Notes: a model not told the origin generated them from the sequence alone. Numbered from the stretch's first letter, positions 7,076 to 43,923 are shown. The stretch is 64,000 nucleotides of DNA from Myxococcota bacterium (GCA_023150805.1 JAKLKF010000021.1:1-64000), one strand, 5' to 3'. Numbers and translations are program-made.

Positions 7076-8116
7076 TCAGCCCTTGGGGGCAGAGACGGCC
7101 GCCCACCGGAAGGCCGGCCAGTGCGGCTGCTCGGTGTCGCCGTCGGGGTAGTAGCTCACGATCTGCAGCTTGTAGTAGCCGCCGGTCGCGGTCTGGAAGA
7201 CGTAGACGACGTCGGCGGGGTCCAGCGTGTGCTCGGTCGTGTTGTAGATGTACCAGTCCTCCATGACCTTGTCGTCGTCGGTGTCCGACAGCCAGCCCTC
7301 GGTCGGCGCCTGGGCCAGGCTGTCGAAGTCCTGGCCCGGCAGCACCGCGACCCGGCTGTCCCCGGCGCGGAAGTCCCACTTCTGCATGGCCAGGTCCCAC
7401 CCCTCGCTGACCAGGCCCGCGCTGGCGAAGCTCCAGCACATCCAGCTCTTGACGTCCCCCGTGTACAGGCGGGTCAGGGTGACGCCGCCGCCCTGGTCGC
7501 TGTTCGTCAGGCTGCTGGCGTCGGCGCTGCAGGTGAAGGGGACCTCGGTCGGGCCGGTGCCCGTGTCGGTGCCGCCCTGCTCGGCCAGGGCCCCCCAGCG
7601 CAGGTGGACGTACCCGGGGCTGCCGGCGTCGTCGTAGTAGGCCAGGAACTGGAGCTTGGCCAGGTCCCCGCCGGCGTCGCGCACCGCGTAGATCACGTCG
7701 GCGGGCGTGACCTGGTGCGTGTCGGCGTCGTAGGCGAACCAGGTGTCCAGCGCGTACTCCGGGTCGCCGTCGGCGTCGGCGTCGGCCTGGTCGGTCACCC
7801 AGCCGTCGGTCGGCGCCTCCAGCTCGGTGCTGTACGGCGTCTCGAAGAAGGGCACGACGGCCATGTCGGCCGTGCCCGAGATCCCGCCGTTGATCTTGAC
7901 CTTGTAGCGTCGGAAGCCCAGATCCCACTCGGCGCTGTCGTCGGGATCGGCGGGGCTCACGACCTGCCCGCCGCCCAGGTCCAGGTAGACCCAGTCGGTC
8001 TCGCTGGTGGCGTCGATGACCGCCTCGCCGGCGGCCACCTGGCTGGCGCCGCCGGTGTCGTCCCCCTGGGGGGCGATGCTGGCGGCGCAGGAGAGCAGCA
8101 GGAGCAGGGTGTTCAC
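7076..8116 (-). CDS. Lipoprotein with an internally duplicated domain, coupled to the upstream TonB-dependent receptor (HmuY-like accessory protein is one hypothesis)
   Basis: GTG at 8116 overlaps the receptor stop (GTGA). MNTLLLLLSC lipobox. Two similar modules (WFAYDADTHQVTPADVIYAVRDAGGDLAKLQFLAYYD and WYIYNTTEHTLDPADVVYVFQTATGGYYKLQIVSYYPDG). Confidence 0.55.
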   Translation of the reverse strand: MNTLLLLLSCAASIAPQGDDTGGASQVAAGEAVIDATSETDWVYLDLGGGQVVSPADPDDSAEWDLGFRRYKVKINGGISGTADMAVVPFFETPYSTELEAPTDGWVTDQADADADGDPEYALDTWFAYDADTHQVTPADVIYAVRDAGGDLAKLQFLAYYDDAGSPGYVHLRWGALAEQGGTDTGTGPTEVPFTCSADASSLTNSDQGGGVTLTRLYTGDVKSWMCWSFASAGLVSEGWDLAMQKWDFRAGDSRVAVLPGQDFDSLAQAPTEGWLSDTDDDKVMEDWYIYNTTEHTLDPADVVYVFQTATGGYYKLQIVSYYPDGDTEQPHWPAFRWAAVSAPKG

Positions 8117-10110
8117 GGGGAGGCTCCGCCCGGCACGGGCAGGTCGAGGACCAGGCCGCCGTAGAACAGGCGGGGGTCGAGGTGGATGTACAGGGCGTCG
8201 CCGGCGTTCAGCAGGTTGTCCACGCCGCCGAACAGGCGCAGGCCGGCCGGCAGGCCCGCCCCCTGGCCCTCCCGCCGCTGCCAGGCCCGCGGCAGGACGG
8301 TCTTCTCGACGCGCAGCTTGAGGTTGGCGTAGGGGTCGGTGTCCAGGGCCTCCTCCACGCCGTCGGCGTCCTCGTCGACGTAGAAGCGGGTGGGGCCCAC
8401 CACCTCGCCACGGAGGGTGGCCTCGGCCAGGAGCCAGGGCGAGCGGGCGGTCAGGCCGAAGGTGCCGCGGTGGGGGGCCCGGCCGTCCAGGGGGCGCGCA
8501 GCGTCGCGGTCGTAGGTGAGGGTCAGCGTGTAGCCCAGGTCGGTGGCCAGGACCCGGGACAGGCGCAGGCGGGCGACCACCTCGCCGCCGGTGGTCCAGG
8601 CGCGGGCGACGTTGACGTAGCTGTAGGCCGCCGGCGAAGAGGCCGTCGCGTCCCGCACGAAGTCGATGGTGATGAGGTCCTGCAGGTCGGTGTACCAGCC
8701 GTCCAGCCGCAGGGTCAGCGCGCGGGAGGGCGCCGCCTCGACCCCGCCGGAGAGCCCCAGGCTGGTCTCGGGCCGCAGGTCGGGGTTGCCCTGCACCTGG
8801 TAGCCGGCGCTGGGGTTCTCGAAGAGCAGGAACATCTCCTTGAAGTCCGGCGCGCGGAAGCCCATGCCCCCGTTGATCCGCAGGGAGAGCCGCTCGGCGG
8901 CGTCCCAGCGCAGGGCCAGGCGCGGCGCGGGGTGCAGGCCGAACCAGGAGTCGGCGTCCAGCCGGGCGCTGGGCACCACCTCGAGCTGGTCGCGCGGCCC
9001 CAGGGTGATCGCGTCCTGGGCGAAGACGGCGCCGCGCCAGCGCTCCCCCGGCTCGGACAGGCGCGGCGAGTCCAGGGTCTCCCGCAGCCCCTCGCCGCCC
9101 AGGGTCAGCACCTGCCGCCCGCCCAGCACCTGGTCCCACTGGGCGTCGAGCTGGCCCAGCAGCTCGCGGCTGTCCTCGTACACGTCCAGGTCGCTGCCTC
9201 CGCGCTGGTCCAGGCTGTACTGGTCGCGGAACAGGTTGCCGGTGGCGGAGATCGACAGCTTGGAGGCCTGCCCCGGCAGCAGCTCGGCGCCCAGGCGCAG
9301 GCTCGTGTCCTCCGTCAGGTTGCGCCGGTCGAAGGTGGCGGCGCTCACCACGTCGACGCCGCTGCTGTCCCGCAGGCGGTAGCCGCCGTCCAGCAGCAGG
9401 CGCACCGCGGGCGAGAGCTTCCAGTCCAGGTCGCCCTCGCCCGAGAGCTGCGACGCGGCGTTGCCATCGGTCTGTTCATCCGAGGGATCCCAGTCGTAGC
9501 CGTCGGTGCGGTGCAGGCCGAAGGACAGGCCCGCCGCCCAGCTCTCCCGCCGCAGGCCCAGGGTCTCGCTGGCGTCGACGGTGTCGCGGCTGCCGTAGGA
9601 GGCGACCGCCTGGCTGCTCAGGCCCTGGTCCGGCTGCCGCGTGATGATGTTGATCACCCCGCCGATGGCGTCGCTGCCGTACAGGGCCGAGGCCGCGCCC
9701 TTGACGACCTCGATGCGATCGATGCGCTCGGCGGGGATCCGCGACAGGTCGACCACCCCGTCTCGCCGTCCGATGACGCGCTTGCCGTCGACCAGGATCA
9801 GCACGTACTGCGGGTCCAGGCCCTGCATCCGCACGCCCGCCCCGCGGAAGGAGCGCACCACCTCGACCCCGGGCACCGTCTCCAGCACCTCGCTGGCGTC
9901 GCTGGCCCCGCTCTCCAGCACCTGCTCCCGGGTGATCACGTCGGTGACGACGACGCTCTCGGACAGGGGGCGCTCGGTGCGGGTGCCGGTCACGACGACG
10001 ACCTCGCCGGCCTCCTCGTGCGGGGGCGGCTCCTCCTCCCCGGGCGCGGCGTCCTGCGCGCGCGCGGCGGGGCAGGACAGCAGGGCGGGCAGCAGGGTCG
10101 CGAGGGTCAT
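8113..10110 (-). CDS. TonB-dependent outer-membrane receptor
   Basis: Signal peptide, TonB box/plug (VVVTGTRTERPLSE...YGSDAIGGVINIIT), and a long beta-barrel region with a terminal aromatic residue. Confidence 0.85.
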   Translation of the reverse strand: MTLATLLPALLSCPAARAQDAAPGEEEPPPHEEAGEVVVVTGTRTERPLSESVVVTDVITREQVLESGASDASEVLETVPGVEVVRSFRGAGVRMQGLDPQYVLILVDGKRVIGRRDGVVDLSRIPAERIDRIEVVKGAASALYGSDAIGGVINIITRQPDQGLSSQAVASYGSRDTVDASETLGLRRESWAAGLSFGLHRTDGYDWDPSDEQTDGNAASQLSGEGDLDWKLSPAVRLLLDGGYRLRDSSGVDVVSAATFDRRNLTEDTSLRLGAELLPGQASKLSISATGNLFRDQYSLDQRGGSDLDVYEDSRELLGQLDAQWDQVLGGRQVLTLGGEGLRETLDSPRLSEPGERWRGAVFAQDAITLGPRDQLEVVPSARLDADSWFGLHPAPRLALRWDAAERLSLRINGGMGFRAPDFKEMFLLFENPSAGYQVQGNPDLRPETSLGLSGGVEAAPSRALTLRLDGWYTDLQDLITIDFVRDATASSPAAYSYVNVARAWTTGGEVVARLRLSRVLATDLGYTLTLTYDRDAARPLDGRAPHRGTFGLTARSPWLLAEATLRGEVVGPTRFYVDEDADGVEEALDTDPYANLKLRVEKTVLPRAWQRREGQGAGLPAGLRLFGGVDNLLNAGDALYIHLDPRLFYGGLVLDLPVPGGASP

Positions 10111-26786: not shown

Positions 26787-27120
26787 GGGGCACCTCGGGG
26801 TGGGGGGAGGTCGGGGTTGCACAGGGGGTCGACGGTGTCGGCGAGGAGGTCGTCGTGGTCGGCACGGGAGCCGCGCTCCCGCCCCGGGCGAGGGGGCCGC
26901 CGTCGCCTCCGCCGCGCCCGCGCCGAGGCCACGAGGCGGGAGCGGGCGGCGCCGGCACCCGAGGGGGGACGGAGCGGTGCCCGCCCGCGGGCCCGTGGAC
27001 AGACCGGCGAGGGCGATGCCACCGGGCAGAGCCCGAGGGCGTGGCGGGGGGGCGACGGCGCGCCCCGTGTGTGGGAGGCCAGCGTTTCAGGCTGGTGGTG
27101 CCCCCGAGGGGACACCGGGG

Positions 27121-27193
27121 AGGGAATGGCGGGACTCGAACCCGCTCCAGCCGGCGGTCAGGCCGGTGCTCTACCGGGATGAGCTACATTCAC
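27121..27193 (-). tRNA. tRNA-Val (anticodon GAC), with an apparently 6-nt anticodon loop
   Basis: Reverse complement GTGAATGTAGCTCATCCCGGTAGAGCACCGGCCTGACCGCCGGCTGGAGCGGGTTCGAGTCCCGCCATTCCCT. Clear D-arm (GCTC/GAGC), T-arm (GCGGG TTCGAGT CCCGC) and acceptor stem (one U.C mismatch). Anticodon arm is CCGGC-CTGACC-GCCGG. Confidence 0.6.
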
Positions 27194-27721
27194 TGCGACC
27201 ACGCATCCGGGCCGGGCCATGGGCAGGCGATGGCGCGGGACGGGTGGGAGCGAGGCCCGAAGGCCGCCCCGCCCGCCGCTTCCTGCTTGGGCACCCTGCC
27301 CTCGGTAGCGCCGAGGGCACCCGGACCTCCGGAGTCGAACCGGAGACGGCGCCGGGAGGAAGGCCTCCCGACGAGACGACGAGACACGTGTGACATCACG
27401 CATGAACAGACATGCGCACAGGGGTTCGGTGCGCCCGAGAGCAGCGAGCCCCCGGGCTCGGGGGAGGCCGGGGGCTCGCGCGCACGGGGGCGAAGGGTGC
27501 CCTATGCGACGAGGTCGTCCCGACCGGAGTCAGCGCTGTTGTCCAGGTAGAACCCGGAGATCCGGCGCGAGCCGGCTTCGGGCTGGACGGGGGGCCGCGC
27601 GGTGAGGCGGCGCACGAAGAACATCGGTGCCAGGCCCATGTCGGCCTCCAGGCTGGGGTGGACGGGAACTCGAATCACCGTACAGGTATCGAGCGCCGGG
27701 AAGACGCGCAAGCGAGACTGT

Positions 27722-37559: not shown

Positions 37560-37817
37560 GTGCGCTACAATCCGGGTATGACCACCGTGACAGACGCCGC
37601 GACCCGCGCCGCCGCCCGCCGTGCCACCTGGCATGGCCAGCTCACCACCGAGCACCATCCTGTCCAGGCGTCCGAGGCCAGCGCCGAGCAGCGGCTCGCG
37701 CTGCTGACGGAGTTGTCCGTGCTGGCGTGGACCCTCAGCGGACGGCCCCTGCCGTCCTACTCGCGGCAGACCATGCCAGGCAGGCTGATCCGGCGGCTCG
37801 GGGAGGAGGCGGGTTGA
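37560..37817 (+). CDS. Small hypothetical protein upstream of, and translationally coupled to, a nucleotidyltransferase (possible antitoxin-like partner)
   Basis: 85 aa (or 79 aa from ATG at 37578). Stop overlaps the next start (TTGA). Contains an Rx4H-like RRATWH segment. Confidence 0.35.
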   Translation: MRYNPGMTTVTDAATRAAARRATWHGQLTTEHHPVQASEASAEQRLALLTELSVLAWTLSGRPLPSYSRQTMPGRLIRRLGEEAG

Positions 37818-38293
37818 GCGTCACCGGCCTGACTGTCGACTACCTGGACCTGTTGGACGCATTTGCAGCGGAGGGCGTCATCCACCTGGTGGTCGGTGGC
37901 TTCGCGCTGGCGGGCCACGGTGTCACCCGGGCGACCGTCGACCTGGACGTGTGGGTGCGCCCCGATCCAGACAACGCGCAGCGTGTGATTCGGGGCCTGC
38001 TGCGCTTTGGCGCACCGCTCGAAGAGCACGGTGTACAAGCCTCGGACTTCGCGCGAGAGGGGATCGTGTACCAGCTTGGCCTGCCCCCATGTCGCATCGA
38101 TGTGCTCACCCGAATCGACGGCGTCGCCTTTGACGACGCGTGGCCCGACCGCGTCTTCCTCCCGATGGAGGGTCGATCGGTCCCCGCCCTGGGCCTGTCG
38201 GCGTTGGTGCAGGCGAAGCGCGCCGCAGGGCGAGAGAAGGACCTGCTGGACCTGCTGCTCCTGCGCAAGGCAGGGGTCCGAATCGACCCGTGA
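37814..38293 (+). CDS. Minimal nucleotidyltransferase (Pol-beta superfamily, MNT/AbiEii-like)
   Basis: TTG at 37814. hG[GS]x9-13DhD motif (VVGGFALAGHGVTRATVDLDVWV) and C-terminal KRAAGREKDLLDLLLL motif. The N-terminal ~275 codons of ORF 36989..38293 are a shadow. Confidence 0.55.
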   Translation: MSVTGLTVDYLDLLDAFAAEGVIHLVVGGFALAGHGVTRATVDLDVWVRPDPDNAQRVIRGLLRFGAPLEEHGVQASDFAREGIVYQLGLPPCRIDVLTRIDGVAFDDAWPDRVFLPMEGRSVPALGLSALVQAKRAAGREKDLLDLLLLRKAGVRIDP

Positions 38294-38311: not shown

Positions 38312-40624
38312 TCAAGCCGGCGGCGAAGGCCGTGGCAGGCTGAATCGAGCACGCCAGGCCACGCGAAGCGCGTCTTCCAGCCAGGCCCGCGCGTGGGCGG
38401 CTGACACGTCGCCCCCTGCCATCATCCCCGCCCAGGCGTAGGCCACCTCGTCGTCCAGGGTCGTGTCAAACAACAAGGGATCGTCCGTGCTGATGCACAA
38501 AGGGAGGACACGGTGATCATTGGGGACCACAGGTCGCAGGTGGAACATCGGCTGATCGAGAGGTGCGTCGAGGTCAGCGATCAGAAGGTTCGAGCTGGGG
38601 TTCACTTCGACTACGAGTTGACTCCTCGCCACTTCCCGCGCCAGCGCAGCCTGGAGCTGGCACAGCAGCGGCACCTCGTCCGTGGTCCGCACCGGGACCA
38701 GGCGCTGCGCACGCTGCCACCTCTCTGGCGACAGGATCAAGAGCATGGCAGCGGGCGCGGCCCCCAGGTCCGGAGCCGCGCCCGCCGCGGGGATGTCCTC
38801 GGGCCGGAGGGAATACAGGTCCGGGATGACCTGCTCCGGGTCGTCGAGCCATGTTCCCGGCACCATCCCCGCGAAGAGCTTGCGTTGCAGCTCTCTGCGC
38901 TCGCCATCGAGTCGCAAGAGGGTGCCGGCGTCCACCGGGACGCACCAGCTACGTATGACATGCGGCACCCACAGCAGATCGATCCAGCGCTCGACCGCGG
39001 GCACCCACACCGTGTCGTTTCGCTTCGCCCATGGCTCGGGGGACAGACCAAGGGCAAGGGCGTGCCCCAGGCGATCGCCCGGTCGCACCAGGTCTGTCAG
39101 CATCGGCTCCGAGACGGCCCGCAGCCCTGTCAGCAGGTGGCGAAAGGACTCCCCACAGTGCAGGGTCATGCCGGGGCCTCTGACCCCGACGCGCCGAAAC
39201 GACTCGTCCAGGCCCGACCTCAGCTCCCGCAGGGCCGGGGCGAACACCCACAGTGGTCCCTCGGCTTCATCCCCCGCCAGGTCGATCCCGCGCAGGACGC
39301 GCGCCAGGTCCGGCTCGGCCTCGATGCAGCCCGCGAGGTCGTCACACAGCGCCCGCGCCTGTCGCAGCGCGCGACGTGCCTGGGCCGGCCAGGGGCAGCT
39401 CCCGTCGGGAGACTGACGGTCCCGCTCGCGGGTCAGGTGCACCACGACAGCCCGCTCCACCGAGCCGTTCCGACCCGACTGATCACGGGCCGTTTGCAGC
39501 CCTCTGCCCGGTGTCACGCGGATCTCCACCGCCTGAACGTGCAGCGAGCTATGCCGTGACGGCGCGTCGGGGTCTACGAGCGTGCCGCCCCCAAGGTCGG
39601 TGCTGTCCCGGAACTGCTGCACGAAGCGCTGAAGCCCCGGCCGGGTGGGGTCGACCACGACGGCCTGGTGGAAGAGGCAACGGACACGGATCCACTGAAC
39701 CAGGACCGCCTTGAGCCAGGGATCCCCGTCCTTGCCCCTCCGCCGCAGCCGCAGCAGGCCACGACGGAGGATGTCGGGGTCCTTGCGGGCTTCGGGATCG
39801 CCGCCCGGGCCGAGCGGCTCCCCGCATCGGATCCTCTCCTCGCGCTCCGGAGATGACTCAGGTCGCAGCAGACGACCGCGGGCCAGCTCCCACACGGCGC
39901 TGGTGGTCTCTGCGTCCCCGCGGCGCGCGAGCCACTCCTCCAGGGCAAGGTCGTCCGGGACGCCGAGGAACCGGTCCAGCAACCGTTCGCACAGTCGGGC
40001 GCGGGACAGCGCCTGCTCCCAGCCCAAGGCGTGCTCGCGGTCGGTGGAGCTACCGTGACCAGCGCCCCAGGCGCGCCCGATGGGCTCTGGGAGGGGCCGC
40101 CCCTGCTCAAGGTGGCGATCCACGCGGCGCCAGGCGTCCGCGGGCAGGCCCGCCGCGCTCAGGTGGAGGTGCAGGTGCGCAGTGGGGATGTCCGTGTCGA
40201 GCAGGGGCGGAAGGAGCGAGACGCGCCCTGGCGTGAATCCCAGACCCTCGTCGGCGGCCAACGCCGCCACGAGGACCTCTCCGGGGACGCGCAGGGAGAG
40301 AAAGCGCCACCGGATCGTCTCGCGCGCAGCGTCGGCCGCCGTTGAAAGCTGCAGGCGGGCCTCGATGCCCTCCAGCCGAAGGCGCCGACGGGCCAGGAGC
40401 CGGAGCCAATCCAGGACGTGCCCGGGAGGCTGCTCGTCGGGCAGCGGCGTCCAGGTGGCCACGCAGGGGTCCCAGGGGAACTGGCGGGGCCCGTACGCCG
40501 CCAGGCGGTCATCGAGGCCGACGCGAAGGTCCTGGGGGGCCCACTCGACGAGACCGCGGTGGAAGGCTTGGGGGGAGCAGAGCGGCCAGGCCTCGGCCTC
40601 GGCCTCCAGGCGGAGGGTGCGCAT
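38312..40624 (-). CDS. Large divergent adenosine/AMP deaminase-fold protein (RADAR RdrB-like)
   Basis: 770 aa with the full ADA metal-hydrolase signature in order: HxH (TAHLHLHLS), HCGESF (HAGE-like), RLGHALAL (cf. ERIGHG), EVNPSSN (cf. VCPxSN), and ISTDDPLLFDTTLDDEVAY (cf. S[LN][NS]TDDP). Long insertions between the motifs. Starts 3 nt after the stop of the upstream NTPase. Confidence 0.7.
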   Translation of the reverse strand: MRTLRLEAEAEAWPLCSPQAFHRGLVEWAPQDLRVGLDDRLAAYGPRQFPWDPCVATWTPLPDEQPPGHVLDWLRLLARRRLRLEGIEARLQLSTAADAARETIRWRFLSLRVPGEVLVAALAADEGLGFTPGRVSLLPPLLDTDIPTAHLHLHLSAAGLPADAWRRVDRHLEQGRPLPEPIGRAWGAGHGSSTDREHALGWEQALSRARLCERLLDRFLGVPDDLALEEWLARRGDAETTSAVWELARGRLLRPESSPEREERIRCGEPLGPGGDPEARKDPDILRRGLLRLRRRGKDGDPWLKAVLVQWIRVRCLFHQAVVVDPTRPGLQRFVQQFRDSTDLGGGTLVDPDAPSRHSSLHVQAVEIRVTPGRGLQTARDQSGRNGSVERAVVVHLTRERDRQSPDGSCPWPAQARRALRQARALCDDLAGCIEAEPDLARVLRGIDLAGDEAEGPLWVFAPALRELRSGLDESFRRVGVRGPGMTLHCGESFRHLLTGLRAVSEPMLTDLVRPGDRLGHALALGLSPEPWAKRNDTVWVPAVERWIDLLWVPHVIRSWCVPVDAGTLLRLDGERRELQRKLFAGMVPGTWLDDPEQVIPDLYSLRPEDIPAAGAAPDLGAAPAAMLLILSPERWQRAQRLVPVRTTDEVPLLCQLQAALAREVARSQLVVEVNPSSNLLIADLDAPLDQPMFHLRPVVPNDHRVLPLCISTDDPLLFDTTLDDEVAYAWAGMMAGGDVSAAHARAWLEDALRVAWRARFSLPRPSPPA

Positions 40625-40627
40625 GGG

Positions 40628-43600
40628 TCAGGGGACGGCCGAGCGCGACGGTTTGGCGCTATGTGCGATCTCGAGATCAAAATCGGTCATCTTGTCTATC
40701 ACGTGTGATGGCAAGACCTCCTTCAGCGATTCACGCAAACTCAAGTACCAGCTGACGAGCAAGTCAGCCATGCGGCTTGACGGCACTCTGCCCGTCGCCT
40801 CACGGCGAATGATCTTGAAAAGCGGAATCCTTCGCAAGTTTCGCCAATATCTGTCCATGTTCCCGTCGAAGTCGAGGCCCACGAGTGGCCCCCATGGATC
40901 ATCAGCGAGCAGTGCACCGACCGTCAGGTACCATGCGACCCACCATAGCTTCTCGTCGGGTGCATTCGAGGGTCGTTGGGCTTGGTGTGCGTCCGCCAAC
41001 GCCGACATGAAGCGATCCCAGGCGACCCATGACGACAGCGGCGGGAGGGGCCAGGGACCATTCGAGCCGCTGAGCACCCACAGGTCGCCTGGAAGCTCGA
41101 CCCCCGACGGCACACCCTGCTGCGTGACAGCGACGCTCGATGCCAGGCCAAGCCAGGAGCCGAATACCGCCTCACGCGGCCTGGACCCTTGGAATTTGGG
41201 AATCGAATATCTCCACGAGAGGTCCCGCCGAACACTCAGGCCGTCGAAGTCCGCTTCTTTTCGAGTGTCGATGGCGAAGGTGACACCAGCCAGGTCAACG
41301 CTCAACTCGCCCATACCCAGCACTCTCACTCGGTCCATCAGGGAGCTATTCGCCTTACCTTCGGTCAATACGCCCCATACCCACTCGATGAACCTCGCCG
41401 CATTGCCGTTCGTCTGCCGGGTCGCCTCCGCGACCTTCGCCAGCAGGTCCTTCACCCCGCCCCTCCGGGCCCAGGCACCGAGCGCCACCGCCGCCGAACC
41501 TGCACGGGACCAGGTAGATGGCCCGGTCCACCTGCCCAGTCGATCAGCTCCGACCATCGCGAACGAGATGTCCTCGGACTTGTCGTCCCCGTGGTGAAAC
41601 AGAAGCGGCGTCCTGGTACTCCTGCGCTCGGTCATTTCTCCCAGGAGCAGAAGAGCCCAGGCTCCGGGCCCGAGCGCCGCTTCCGCGGCACGCGCGTACC
41701 AGCAATCCTGCCAGAACTCTGCCGACCCCACGTGGTCCAGGGGGAGCCTTGCGAGCAAGCCTACCTGCGTGGAGTCGAGCCGGTTCCCATTCGCCATGGA
41801 CAGCACCTCGGCATCCACAGGCACCTGCTCAAGATGCGGCATCATGTCGACCGCGGTCGCGTCGGGTTTCGCGTTCCCGTCATTAGGGCCCCGCTGGTCA
41901 TGCCAGAGTTCGCTGACGATCACCTCCCGATGCGTTGGACCCAGCCCGAAACGCGGATGCGACAGCGCCAGCATAGCGCCCTTCCAACGGCTCTCGGCCT
42001 GCCTATCGTCTCCATCGGGAGGCGACTTCGCGGCGATGACCTTCAACAATGACCACTCCGCGCTTGCACTCTGCGTCTGCCCACGCAAGAAGCGCACCCA
42101 GGCGCACAGGATCCGCTCCTCACCGCCCTGCGCACCGCTGGCTGAAGATTCCTTCTCAGCCTCTCGAAGCAGCGCATCGAGGCGGGCGCGATGTTCCCGC
42201 CAGTGGGCCTGTTCGCCCGGGTCCGCCTGATCTCCACGCGGGAACCAGGGCGACGGCCAGACCAGCGACGCATCGCTCCCCAGGTCGACGCTGCGCACCA
42301 TCGCACCGCCGCGGACACCGCCCGAGCGGGCCAGCGCCTCCCCCCCGCTGAGGTACCGCGCGCCCGCCGCGAGCCAGGCGTCCAGGGGCCGAGGTTCCTG
42401 TCCTTCGCAGGCGGGGCGCAGCTGCTCAACCACCTGGAAGGCCGTGGAGCGCCCCGGCGCTGGCGACAGGAGGGGCCGCCATCGGGAGGGCACCGCCTCC
42501 AGCACAAGCCGGGAGCCCGTCGGGATGACCCTGCGAAGGACGCTGCGCAGCCCCTGGGCTCGGAGGTTCTTCAGTTCGAAGGGTTCCCCCTCCCACACCT
42601 CCTCTGGTGCTTCGCCGAACAGCCCCTCCAGGAGGAGGTCCAGCGCGTCGCCCTCGGCGGGGTCAGCCCCAGCCTGGCCCGCCCACTCCAGTTCTCGCGC
42701 CAGGCTCTCCAGGCGCCGATGGGTGCTGGAGAGCGCCGGCGTCCACCCGGGCTCCGCCAGGAGCCTGTCGTTCCAAAGCTGTTCGAGCAGTTCCCGGCGC
42801 TCCTCGGTGAGGCCTCGCTCCTCAACCACCTTGCGAAGGGCCCCTCCACGCCAGCGGAGCACCCTTCCGAGATCCAGCCGGGACAGGCTCACCCGCATCA
42901 CCGGCGGGATGGTCTTCTCCACCGATTGCCGTCCCAGCGACGCGGTCGGCCGCTGGCCGGGGTCCTGAACGACCTCGCTTCCGCCCATGCGGCGCTCCTG
43001 CCCGTCCACGTCTACCTGGAGCACGAACTCGAGCTGTCGTGCGAAGCCAGTGACCAGGAAGACCACCCGGCGATGCTGGAGCAGGCGCAGGAAACGCAGG
43101 AGCTCAGGCGCCCGGGTGATCTGCAGGTCGACGTCGTCGACGGGAACCAGCAGCACGCCGTGCTTCCCGAGTCTGCCGCATCGCTCGATGGCGGCCAGCA
43201 GCTCGTCGACGAAACTGCACCACTCACCCTGGAAGCCGCCCCAGGTCCGCACCCGGCGCAGCTCCTCCTCCGGCGAGGGCACACCGCGCGCGGACGAGGG
43301 CTCCCGCCAGGCGACGACGGCATGGTCGTGAAGGCGCTGCCACTGCCCCTTTAAGTTGAGCTCCCCCCGCCCGGCCCGTCGATCCAGCTCGTCCAGTCGC
43401 GCAGAGCCCGTCTCCAGACCCAGCCGGGTGACCTCGTCCACCAGCGGCTCGAAGGCCTGAAGGATCCATGCCAGCAGCGGCAGGCCGGGGGGAAGTGGAT
43501 CGAAGTCCAGGGGCCGGGTCGGGAGCACGCTGCCATGGATCTCTGCCACCCAGGCTGGCGGGGCGTCCCTCTGCTGGAGCCTGTCCAGCAGGGTAAGGAG

Positions 43601-43846
43601 CAAGGAGGTCTTGCCGGTGCCCCGGTCGCCATCGACCATCACCACGCGCGGCGTGCGGCCGCTGTCCATCGCCAGCCAGGGCATGGAATCGGTCGCGGGC
43701 GACCTCGTCGTGGGGTTCGCAATGTCGGTGAGCACACCCTGCAGGCGACCGACCAGCTCCGTCAGGAGGCGTCGGTCGTCGTCGACCAGCTCCTCCTCTC
43801 GGAGGGGACGAGTGTCGGCGGGCAAGTGCCAGGACGAAGCGAGCAT
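40628..43846 (-). CDS. Large P-loop NTPase (AAA/KAP-like; RADAR RdrA-like)
   Basis: 1072 aa. Walker A VVMVDGDRGTGKTSLLLTLL near the N-terminus, Walker B VLLVPVDDVDL. ~800 aa of non-repetitive C-terminal sequence. SD-like gagg upstream of the ATG at 43846. Confidence 0.7.
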   Translation of the reverse strand: MLASSWHLPADTRPLREEELVDDDRRLLTELVGRLQGVLTDIANPTTRSPATDSMPWLAMDSGRTPRVVMVDGDRGTGKTSLLLTLLDRLQQRDAPPAWVAEIHGSVLPTRPLDFDPLPPGLPLLAWILQAFEPLVDEVTRLGLETGSARLDELDRRAGRGELNLKGQWQRLHDHAVVAWREPSSARGVPSPEEELRRVRTWGGFQGEWCSFVDELLAAIERCGRLGKHGVLLVPVDDVDLQITRAPELLRFLRLLQHRRVVFLVTGFARQLEFVLQVDVDGQERRMGGSEVVQDPGQRPTASLGRQSVEKTIPPVMRVSLSRLDLGRVLRWRGGALRKVVEERGLTEERRELLEQLWNDRLLAEPGWTPALSSTHRRLESLARELEWAGQAGADPAEGDALDLLLEGLFGEAPEEVWEGEPFELKNLRAQGLRSVLRRVIPTGSRLVLEAVPSRWRPLLSPAPGRSTAFQVVEQLRPACEGQEPRPLDAWLAAGARYLSGGEALARSGGVRGGAMVRSVDLGSDASLVWPSPWFPRGDQADPGEQAHWREHRARLDALLREAEKESSASGAQGGEERILCAWVRFLRGQTQSASAEWSLLKVIAAKSPPDGDDRQAESRWKGAMLALSHPRFGLGPTHREVIVSELWHDQRGPNDGNAKPDATAVDMMPHLEQVPVDAEVLSMANGNRLDSTQVGLLARLPLDHVGSAEFWQDCWYARAAEAALGPGAWALLLLGEMTERRSTRTPLLFHHGDDKSEDISFAMVGADRLGRWTGPSTWSRAGSAAVALGAWARRGGVKDLLAKVAEATRQTNGNAARFIEWVWGVLTEGKANSSLMDRVRVLGMGELSVDLAGVTFAIDTRKEADFDGLSVRRDLSWRYSIPKFQGSRPREAVFGSWLGLASSVAVTQQGVPSGVELPGDLWVLSGSNGPWPLPPLSSWVAWDRFMSALADAHQAQRPSNAPDEKLWWVAWYLTVGALLADDPWGPLVGLDFDGNMDRYWRNLRRIPLFKIIRREATGRVPSSRMADLLVSWYLSLRESLKEVLPSHVIDKMTDFDLEIAHSAKPSRSAVP

Positions 43847-43923
43847 CGGGCAAGACCTCAGTGGGGAGAAGAACCCCCGGCCAGCCTACGCAGTGATTCC
43901 GTCCGGATCAACCGCCCCCCGCC

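Follow-up and report, generated by a model that had tools for sequence, protein, structure and literature searches.

A probable RADAR-type anti-phage gene pair from a deeply divergent, unannotated branch in Myxococcota, with an apparent natural rdrA allele swap

INTRODUCTION

RADAR is a rare defense system, and its trigger is, to our knowledge, not yet known. Cad1/CARF-ADA, a type III CRISPR-associated effector with an adenosine deaminase (ADA) fold, is likewise antiviral and converts ATP to ITP, but its sensor is a fused CARF domain binding cyclic oligoadenylates and not a separate AAA+ ATPase. Here we describe a gene pair, rdrA-like and rdrB-like, in a 64,000-nucleotide (nt) stretch of Myxococcota DNA (GCA_023150805.1 JAKLKF010000021.1:1-64000), called the window below, from whose first letter all coordinates are counted. 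Sequence comparison and structure modeling make it likely that the pair is a two-gene RADAR-type anti-phage system belonging to a deeply divergent, unannotated branch. The principle of the RADAR system is known; what is new is a very divergent family member and an apparent natural swap of its rdrA allele.

The reference structures are those of the Escherichia coli and Citrobacter rodentium RADAR (PDB 8FNT, 8FNV, 8FNW, 8HR7-8HRC; Duncan-Lowey et al. 2023, PMC9994260). In RADAR, a heptamer of RdrA, its lower layer built from C-terminal alpha-helical lobes, docks on a dodecamer of RdrB. Two insertions, the crown (b2-b3) and a three-helix insertion (b4-b5), set RdrA apart from other AAA+ clades, and the crown of E. 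coli RdrA makes nearly all of the contacts with RdrB (PMC9994260). RdrA has been proposed as the sensing component, acting via its variable C-terminal region, and RdrA C termini are without conservation even among proven RADAR systems (PMC9994260). Published RdrA proteins are 812 to 1178 amino acids (aa) long and RdrB proteins 727 to 914 aa (PMC9994260, main text and Table S1), and the system is on record for 75 genera spread over 7 phyla (PMC9994260). A preliminary description of the window, which recognized the RdrA/RdrB architecture, drew on mainly enterobacterial examples of RADAR and took the length of the nucleoside triphosphatase (NTPase) as a sign of a possible distinct variant; the published distribution corrects the former, and the latter falls away with proteins of 1072 and 770 aa lying inside the published ranges. 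The text of Table S1 of PMC9994260 has no names starting with Myxococc, Chondromyces, or Acidobacteri, and none of the papers in the library searched describes RADAR from Myxococcota or an exchange of RdrA alleles.

Set beside E. coli RADAR, the window pair has the same rdrA-rdrB order, an AAA+ core with Walker A near residue 80 and a Walker B "DD," and, in the structure model, both the four-helix crown and the three-helix channel insertion of RdrA. With E. coli RdrB it shares the catalytic series (H152/H154...H489/E492...H521 versus H152/H154...H498/E501...H530), an insertion of about 335 aa that splits the core, and another long one following the last His. It differs from the E. coli system in the C-terminal region of its RdrA (about 730 aa), whose sequence is unrelated and which exceeds its E. 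coli counterpart by about 125 aa, in having no SLATT or other accessory gene, and in its high-GC Myxococcota host. Unlike Cad1/CARF-ADA, the window has no CARF domain or CRISPR context; the 770-aa deaminase gave a weak match to the PADLOC CARF_ADA model (E value, 2e-4).

RESULTS

Two closely spaced genes in a low-GC block

The pair is encoded on the minus strand, where the TGA of rdrA is followed by CCC and then by the ATG of rdrB.

40628..43846, minus strand: rdrA-like gene, a 1072-aa open reading frame (ORF) with an N-terminal AAA+ ATPase (about aa 10 to 350) and a C-terminal region of about 730 aa
38312..40624, minus strand: rdrB-like gene, a 770-aa ORF with an ADA fold and long insertions of the RdrB type
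40622..40630, minus strand: rdrA-stop/rdrB-start junction, TGACCCATG, with a 3-nt spacer

The ORF listing thus bears out the earlier report of a 1072-aa NTPase and a 770-aa partner 3 nt apart, and translation of the two genes through the TGACCCATG junction is probably coupled. In the database both proteins (L6R53_08750 and L6R53_08745, from a Myxococcota metagenome-assembled genome [MAG]) are annotated as "hypothetical protein." The low-GC island and the exopolysaccharide setting that had been described are also found. The GC content is 65 to 72% between 38 and 44 kb and about 75 to 80% in the flanks, and the GC content at third codon positions (GC3) is 0.80 for the NTPase gene and 0.84 for the deaminase gene, compared with 0.96 to 1.00 for the adjacent GalE, glycosyltransferase, Poly_export, and PPTase genes. 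Because GC3 runs from 0.80 to 0.87 inside the block, so far under that of its flanks, this composition marks the block as foreign. The flanking genes match Epimerase, Glycos_transf_1, Poly_export/SLBB, and ACPS in Pfam, which confirms that the flanks are a polysaccharide locus.

The 770-aa protein as an RdrB homolog

By sequence, the 770-aa protein is a homolog of RdrB. It matched the NCBIfam RdrB model (NF041744) with an E value of 7.5e-42 (143.8 bits) and two PADLOC RdrB models with E values of 2.7e-28 and 1.4e-27. When the single sequence was searched against the PDB, the sole solved matches were E. coli RdrB entries (8fnv, 8fnw, 8hr7, and 8hrc; E value, 6e-14), and a profile of nine clade members matched PDB RdrB with an E value of 1.2e-38, spanning residues 286 to 786 of 799. 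Comparison by hhalign with two bona fide RdrB proteins, from Pluralibacter and Pseudoduganella, gave a probability of 99.7% and an E value of 4e-27 over columns 333 to 901. The identity of its profile to canonical RdrB is about 23% across 440 hhalign columns. The motifs listed below were read from the translation.

40163..40177, minus strand: HxH metal ligands HLHLH (aa 150 to 154; H152 and H154)
39149..39160, minus strand: HCGE (aa 489 to 492), with the third zinc ligand His (H489) and the catalytic Glu (E492)
39059..39073, minus strand: RLGHA (aa 518 to 522), with the fourth zinc ligand His (H521)
38477..38602, minus strand: C-terminal ADA core motifs NPSSN (aa 675 to 679) and STDDP (aa 712 to 716)

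The His tetrad and the catalytic Glu are complete (H152, H154, H489, E492, and H521). H152 and H154 are invariant among 9 RdrB-like sequences, and their residue numbers equal those of H152/H154 in E. coli RdrB (PMC9994260). The HCGE motif pairs residue by residue with "HVGE" of E. coli RdrB in both single-sequence and profile alignments (H489/H498 and E492/E501), RLGHA pairs with "GDRLGHC" (H521/H530), and NPSSN and STDDP pair with "PTSN" and "GSDDP." The third and fourth His are 32 residues apart in both proteins. From HxH to the third His, the catalytic core is split by 335 aa, versus 344 in E. coli RdrB, and a further long insertion places NPSSN 154 aa after H521, so that the motif spacing is that of RdrB and not of the housekeeping adenosine deaminase Add.

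Add itself was considered and rejected, given that the match is partial and under threshold, that the protein is 770 aa and not about 330 aa long, and that it sits with an ATPase partner in a polysaccharide locus. The Pfam A_deaminase model (PF00962) aligned with no more than the C-terminal 70 residues and scored 20 bits, its cutoff being 27, and TIGR01430 reached 22.9 against a cutoff of 216.55, again on the C-terminal segment.

The 1072-aa protein as a remote RdrA homolog

On profile and model evidence, the 1072-aa protein is a remote homolog of RdrA, one whose kinship emerges only by profile, hhalign, and fold searches and not in a single-sequence search of the PDB, where phmmer returned nothing relevant. 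The protein matched Pfam AAA_16 just over the cutoff (34.5 bits) and NCBIfam RdrA (NF041743) with an E value of 8e-6 (24.6 bits). All 29 homologs of the NTPase matched the NCBIfam model (29/29; best E value, 1.4e-14) and 23 of the 29 the PADLOC RdrA model. A profile of the 29 homologs had solved RdrA (8hr7_A and 8fnt_B) as its top PDB match (E value, 1.2e-3), with an alignment that is collinear over the ATPase domain (positions 68 to 331 versus 69 to 312). When four full-length relatives were compared with canonical RdrA by hhalign, the probability was 97.8% and the E value 9.6e-13; ATPase identity to canonical RdrA is about 28% over 225 aligned profile columns (hhalign consensus).

43604..43630, minus strand: Walker A (P-loop) GDRGTGKTS, aa 73 to 81 (G78, K79, and T80), from the translation
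43124..43156, minus strand: Walker B VLLVPVDDVDL, aa 231 to 241 (D237 and D238), from the translation
43172..43489, minus strand: predicted crown, a four-helix b2-b3 insertion (about aa 120 to 225), from the AlphaFold (AF2) model

Residues G73, R75, G76, G78, K79, and T80 of Walker A and D237, D238, and D240 of Walker B are invariant in the 29 homologs. In the profile alignment, Walker A pairs with GAGKT of E. coli RdrA, which includes G81/K82/T83 (PMC9994260), and Walker B pairs with "ITFDDIDTQ," which holds D221/D222 (PMC9994260). The N-terminal P-loop, once read as KAP-like, is therefore no departure from RdrA, that of the E. coli protein being likewise N-terminal. With these two motifs and the HxH, HCGE, RLGHA, NPSSN, and STDDP motifs of the deaminase, every motif of the preliminary description is present in the translations. 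They are not chance matches, because the whole-protein hidden Markov model (HMM) and profile E values are highly significant for the deaminase, and those at the profile and fold levels are significant for the NTPase.

The AF2 model is good over aa 10 to 350, where the predicted local distance difference test score (pLDDT) is mostly 76 to 95. In a Foldseek search of the PDB with this model, ranks 1 to 20 were all RdrA chains, from E. coli and Streptococcus suis, with E values of 2.9e-7 to 1.1e-4 over about 520 to 540 aligned columns; the next match was Cdc6 (E value, 0.05). The modeled crown helices (aa 124 to 141, 149 to 158, 165 to 179, and 192 to 222) lie between strands at aa 107 to 109 and 231 to 237, with pLDDT dipping to 45 to 63 near aa 141 to 160 and 181 to 200. 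Three further helices (aa 269 to 312) are modeled at b4-b5, between strands at aa 261 to 267 and 318 to 321. Both RdrA-specific insertions are thus predicted for the window protein. The S. suis RdrA (PDB 8FNU) was recovered by this fold search with an E value of 7.5e-5. Its C-terminal lobe differs, and its sequence match to the window profile is limited to the P-loop region; it shows an ATPase layer shared among RdrA proteins, with C-terminal lobes diverged beyond sequence recognition.

Because RdrB and RdrA homology, intact catalytic residues, and the RADAR gene order occur together, we take the pair to be RADAR homologs. The architecture first proposed for the locus is in this way supported by significant similarity to both RdrB (E value, 7.5e-42) and RdrA (hhalign E value, 9.6e-13), in profile and HMM searches and, for RdrA, in the structure search.

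Universal pairing and size of the branch

About 40 related loci (designated by L numbers below), retrieved through protein identity and through a one-genome-per-species scan, were analyzed with profiles of both proteins. In every related locus with sufficient downstream DNA, the RdrA-like gene was directly followed by the RdrB-like gene. Two of these loci, from Pluralibacter gergoviae (L037) and Pseudoduganella flava (L039), are canonical RADAR, with PADLOC scores of 1566 and 723 bits for RdrA and 1724 and 904 bits for RdrB, and the Pluralibacter system appears in Table S1 of PMC9994260. Since the universal pairing takes in both canonical loci, the window pair lies, as far as sequence comparison goes, on a continuum reaching proven RADAR.

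When 1.84 billion cluster representatives (50% identity clusters) were searched exhaustively, 1013 relatives of the NTPase were found at an E value of ≤1e-3 and 620 at an E value of ≤1e-10. Nearly all of the 1013 match the ATPase domain alone, about aa 10 to 335. Most hosts in this wider branch are environmental MAGs, assigned to Acidobacteriota, Myxococcota, Gemmatimonadota, and Proteobacteria; Chondromyces apiculatus DSM 436 is a further host. Judged by these searches, the window pair belongs to a large RADAR branch of at least 620 clusters that scores far under the curated models. The other long-form relatives (L004, L005, and L041) are found in genomic contexts unrelated to that of the window.

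Several related loci carry disrupted or additional genes. In L006 (9276-15031), the RdrB-like gene is broken by an IS21-type element (rve transposase and AAA_22 helper). An N-terminal ORF of 616 aa remains, as does a C-terminal piece of 134 aa in which the matches to A_deaminase and to the RdrB profile persist. In L041 (5562-8967), the long-form RdrA-like gene is present as two overlapping ORFs of 136 aa (with the P-loop) and 988 aa, a split due to a frameshift or a sequencing error, with a 792-aa RdrB-like gene downstream and an FRG-domain gene upstream. L004 has a 186-aa ORF with a 4-nt overlap with the rdrA start (817-1377) and a 933-aa ORF convergent to rdrB (7177-9978); neither matched Pfam, NCBIfam, or PADLOC models, and both are possible lineage-specific accessory genes.

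A lineage-specific C-terminal region

40631..42841, minus strand: RdrA-like C-terminal region, aa 336 to 1072, a candidate sensor domain with the lowest GC of the island, hypervariable between sister strains

This region has a GC3 of 0.77. A full-length match to it was found in just 3 of the 1.84 billion cluster representatives (P0002, P0004, and P0033), and its HMM matches five lineages only, namely, the window, the sister strain (L001 to L003), L004, L005, and L041. The RdrA-like ORFs of four other Myxococcota MAGs (L024, L031, L033, and L034) are also long, at 1040 to 1240 aa from stop to stop, and the C-terminal HMM of the window has no match in them. On this comparison, long lineage-specific RdrA C-terminal regions seem common in Myxococcota.

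Probable replacement of the rdrA allele in a sister strain

A sister strain is represented by three independent Logan assemblies (L001 to L003) that have the same ACPS and Poly_export context as the window. In a codon-level comparison of window and sister, synonymous divergence (dS) was 0.005 for ACPS, 0.073 for Poly_export, 0.049 for rdrB, and 0.088 and 0.075 for two small ORFs downstream of the pair, orf159 and orf85. For rdrA it was 0.47 to 0.90 across the ATPase domain, and over the C-terminal region it ran from 0.8 to saturation. The two rdrA alleles show 53% amino acid identity overall, falling to 22 to 50% in the C-terminal region apart from two islands (about aa 700 to 820 and 900 to 1020) with 56 to 78% identity. 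At the 3' breakpoint, no alignment is possible as far as the rdrA stop, and from TGACCCATG on the sequences run for ~130 nt without a difference. The same junction is kept in four lineages whose proteins are merely 33 to 53% identical. At the other end, the alignment to L001 is near identity inside Poly_export and drops to about 75% just past its stop.

43847..43923, minus strand: intergenic region upstream of rdrA, 77 nt, which diverges along with the rdrA allele

This 77-nt region is likely the 5' edge of the swapped segment. The least diverged stretch of the swapped allele is aa 76 to 200, with 78 to 88% identity and a nonsynonymous divergence (dN) of 0.10 over aa 101 to 200, which is the predicted crown region. 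RdrB differs from its sister at 33 positions, all at aa 43 to 386 and 559/561, that is, in the RdrB-specific extension and the insertions; its catalytic core segments hold none of the 33 substitutions, and dN/dS for rdrB is 0.44.

Because the divergence includes synonymous sites and ends sharply at the rdrA stop, we infer from the two alleles compared that the whole rdrA gene was replaced by recombination, with the fit to the resident RdrB kept via the crown. A diversity-generating or hypermutation origin of the RdrA variation was rejected on the same grounds, the whole gene having diverged, synonymous sites included, up to a sharp end at the stop. The dS pattern and breakpoint amount to an arms-race (conflict-type) signature of the sort typical of conflict genes. 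An allele swap with rdrB and the flanks near identical fits RdrA as an exchangeable specificity component, and we tentatively suggest, with rather less than even confidence, that RdrA could be a swappable specificity cassette, its upstream spacer exchanged along with it, on a constant effector chassis formed by RdrB.

Relatives in an eight-gene cassette

The closest large group to the window pair occurs within a cassette of eight genes, in the order UCP032817/GRDP-like, S-adenosylmethionine (SAM) methyltransferase, TauD, 1420-aa UvrA-like ABC ATPase, SAM methyltransferase, RdrA-like, RdrB-like, and TauD-like. This order was found at L007:1-12900 and at L008, L009, L013, L015, L017, L018, L020 to L023, L027 to L030, and L035, and in rearranged form in Chondromyces apiculatus DSM 436 (L025). 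The cassette genes are 50 to 80% identical across Acidobacteriota, Gemmatimonadota, Alpha- and Betaproteobacteria, and Myxococcota. At L009 the cassette adjoins a relaxase. In PADLOC, partial matches to the MADS components mad2, mad3, and mad8 came from the methyltransferases and the ABC ATPase of the cassette. We know of no description of this cassette. Its pairs share the A-then-B order with the window pair and show 30 to 35% identity in the ATPase domain and 28 to 30% in RdrB, but the cassette RdrA is shorter (750 to 830 aa), with a C terminus other than that of the window, and the window pair is without the cassette neighbors (GRDP-like protein, methyltransferases, TauD, and UvrA-like ATPase). 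This RADAR branch may thus not always be a stand-alone pair.

DISCUSSION

If the window pair works as the E. coli system does, phage infection would be sensed by RdrA, possibly through its variable C-terminal region; RdrA would form a ring whose crown docks onto an RdrB shell, over the RdrB active sites; RdrB would convert ATP and dATP to ITP and dITP; and this deamination would stop phage replication and host growth.

Several observations weigh against the RADAR reading. Neither protein reaches the NCBIfam equivalog cutoffs (24.6 bits against 600 for RdrA and 143.8 bits against 800 for RdrB), and because the scores are so far under these cutoffs, standard annotation would not name either one. 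The PADLOC RdrA match of the 1072-aa protein covers 37 residues only (E value, 2.3e-5; 20.9 bits). In an hhalign comparison with canonical RdrA, the C-terminal 730 aa showed no detectable similarity, and AF2 models this region poorly, as mostly helical with a pLDDT of 30 to 65 and short beta segments at aa 840 to 873. For the deaminase, the equivalence of HxH to that of E. coli RdrB is one of motif and spacing, the N-terminal stretch lying outside the profile alignments, and its structure model, made from a 3-row alignment, has a pLDDT of 35.5, so that the fold and the assembly insertions are read from sequence collinearity. Many close RdrA-like relatives sit in the eight-gene cassette. The island flanks showed no meaningful direct or inverted repeats and no tRNA nearby (integrases were not looked for), and a promoter scan found no sigma-70-like promoter.

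A RADAR homolog need not serve in defense. The pair might instead tie ATP or adenosine deamination to polysaccharide production, starvation, or development, cotranscribed with the exopolysaccharide genes, and its position invites that thought: it lies directly downstream of Poly_export (77 nt) and on the same strand, with no recognizable promoter, a placement kept in the sister strain. The methyltransferases, TauD dioxygenases, and UvrA-like ATPase that accompany its relatives in the eight-gene cassette could be biosynthetic or resistance related. We nevertheless regard a nondefense role as unlikely. The placement is not general, as none of 80 loci with Poly_export relatives carries the pair (0/80), and in the closest relative, 58% identical and found in a metagenome scan (L042), a GalE homolog follows Poly_export directly with no island, where the window has rdrA, rdrB, two small ORFs, and a glycosyltransferase gene in the ~7.6 kb between Poly_export and GalE. 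As evidence of an empty site, L042 is suggestive only. The long-form relatives L004, L005, and L041 stand in unrelated contexts, GC3 points to a foreign block, and whole-gene replacement of rdrA with saturated dS is typical of conflict genes and not of housekeeping genes. The pair does not belong to the polysaccharide pathway. Synteny with purine metabolism, which the preliminary description had named as telling against RADAR, was looked for and did not appear, the flanks being polysaccharide genes and the other Poly_export loci being without the pair.

It is also conceivable that the NTPase is some other P-loop NTPase of the STAND or KAP type, paired independently with an RdrB-like deaminase in a convergent "NTPase plus ADA" arrangement with another activation mechanism. 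The weakness of the direct RdrA HMM matches (E values, 8e-6 and 2.3e-5) and the lack of similarity to RdrA in the C-terminal two-thirds would suit this, but published RdrA C termini are themselves not conserved (PMC9994260), and all 29 homologs match NCBIfam RdrA. A few homologs bear precomputed Pfam tags for KAP (PF07693) or nSTAND_NTPase5; the KAP tag is on just 3 of the 29, and the window protein itself has no PF07693 match at an E value of ≤1, so that the KAP assignment considered earlier does not stand. With RdrA filling all of the top 20 Foldseek ranks (E values down to 3e-7, with other AAA+/STAND proteins at 0.05 or worse), both RdrA-specific insertions in the model, a profile-profile probability of 97.8%, and genuine RADAR loci (L037 and L039) pulled out by the same sequence patterns, we consider a convergent pairing very improbable. 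The thought that the pair is an inactive relic, its ORFs intact and its function lost, draws on the AAA+ sensor-1 position (aligned with D253 of E. coli), which is not conserved in this clade, being F268 in the window, D in P0002, and H in P0003 and P0004. Two long ORFs have nevertheless stayed intact in a 75% GC genome, and all catalytic residues are kept; a loss of such residues, raised beforehand as a possible disproof, was looked for at the His, Glu, and Asp positions, which are retained. The rdrB dN/dS of 0.44, the catalytic core segments free of substitutions, and a two-gene arrangement kept in five lineages with its junction conserved make a relic the least probable of these alternatives.

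Read as RADAR, the pair extends the recognizable family to a very divergent, high-GC branch centered on Myxococcota and Acidobacteriota, and since this branch falls far under the NCBIfam cutoffs, published RADAR counts may be underestimates. The sister strains would offer a natural allele-swap experiment, with one RdrB and two very different RdrA proteins that have a similar crown. If true in general, this would be evidence from natural populations that the RdrA C-terminal region sets what RADAR senses. The relatives of the pair have, in addition, been recruited into a larger conserved cassette. The known RADAR principle is left unchanged, and the value of the locus is chiefly that of a new family member and of testable constructs.

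Surroundings of the island

37560..38293, plus strand: two small ORFs of 85 and 159 aa that overlap each other and are convergent to rdrB

Together with these two ORFs, the pair occupies the interval between Poly_export and the glycosyltransferase and GalE genes. The small ORFs belong to the same lower-GC3 block (GC3 of 0.87 for the 85-aa ORF and 0.81 for the 159-aa ORF), and both are kept in the sister strain (L001). Neither matched a Pfam or NCBIfam model; the 159-aa ORF gave a weak PADLOC match to AbiEii, a nucleotidyltransferase toxin (E value, 0.0047). The two may be a small toxin-antitoxin-like pair that traveled with the island. A terminator scan found one terminator-like site, within rdrB on the opposite strand and below chance expectation. 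About 11 kb from the island, at 27118-27194 on the minus strand, ARAGORN placed a tRNA-like gene ("tRNA-???," anticodon "ga").

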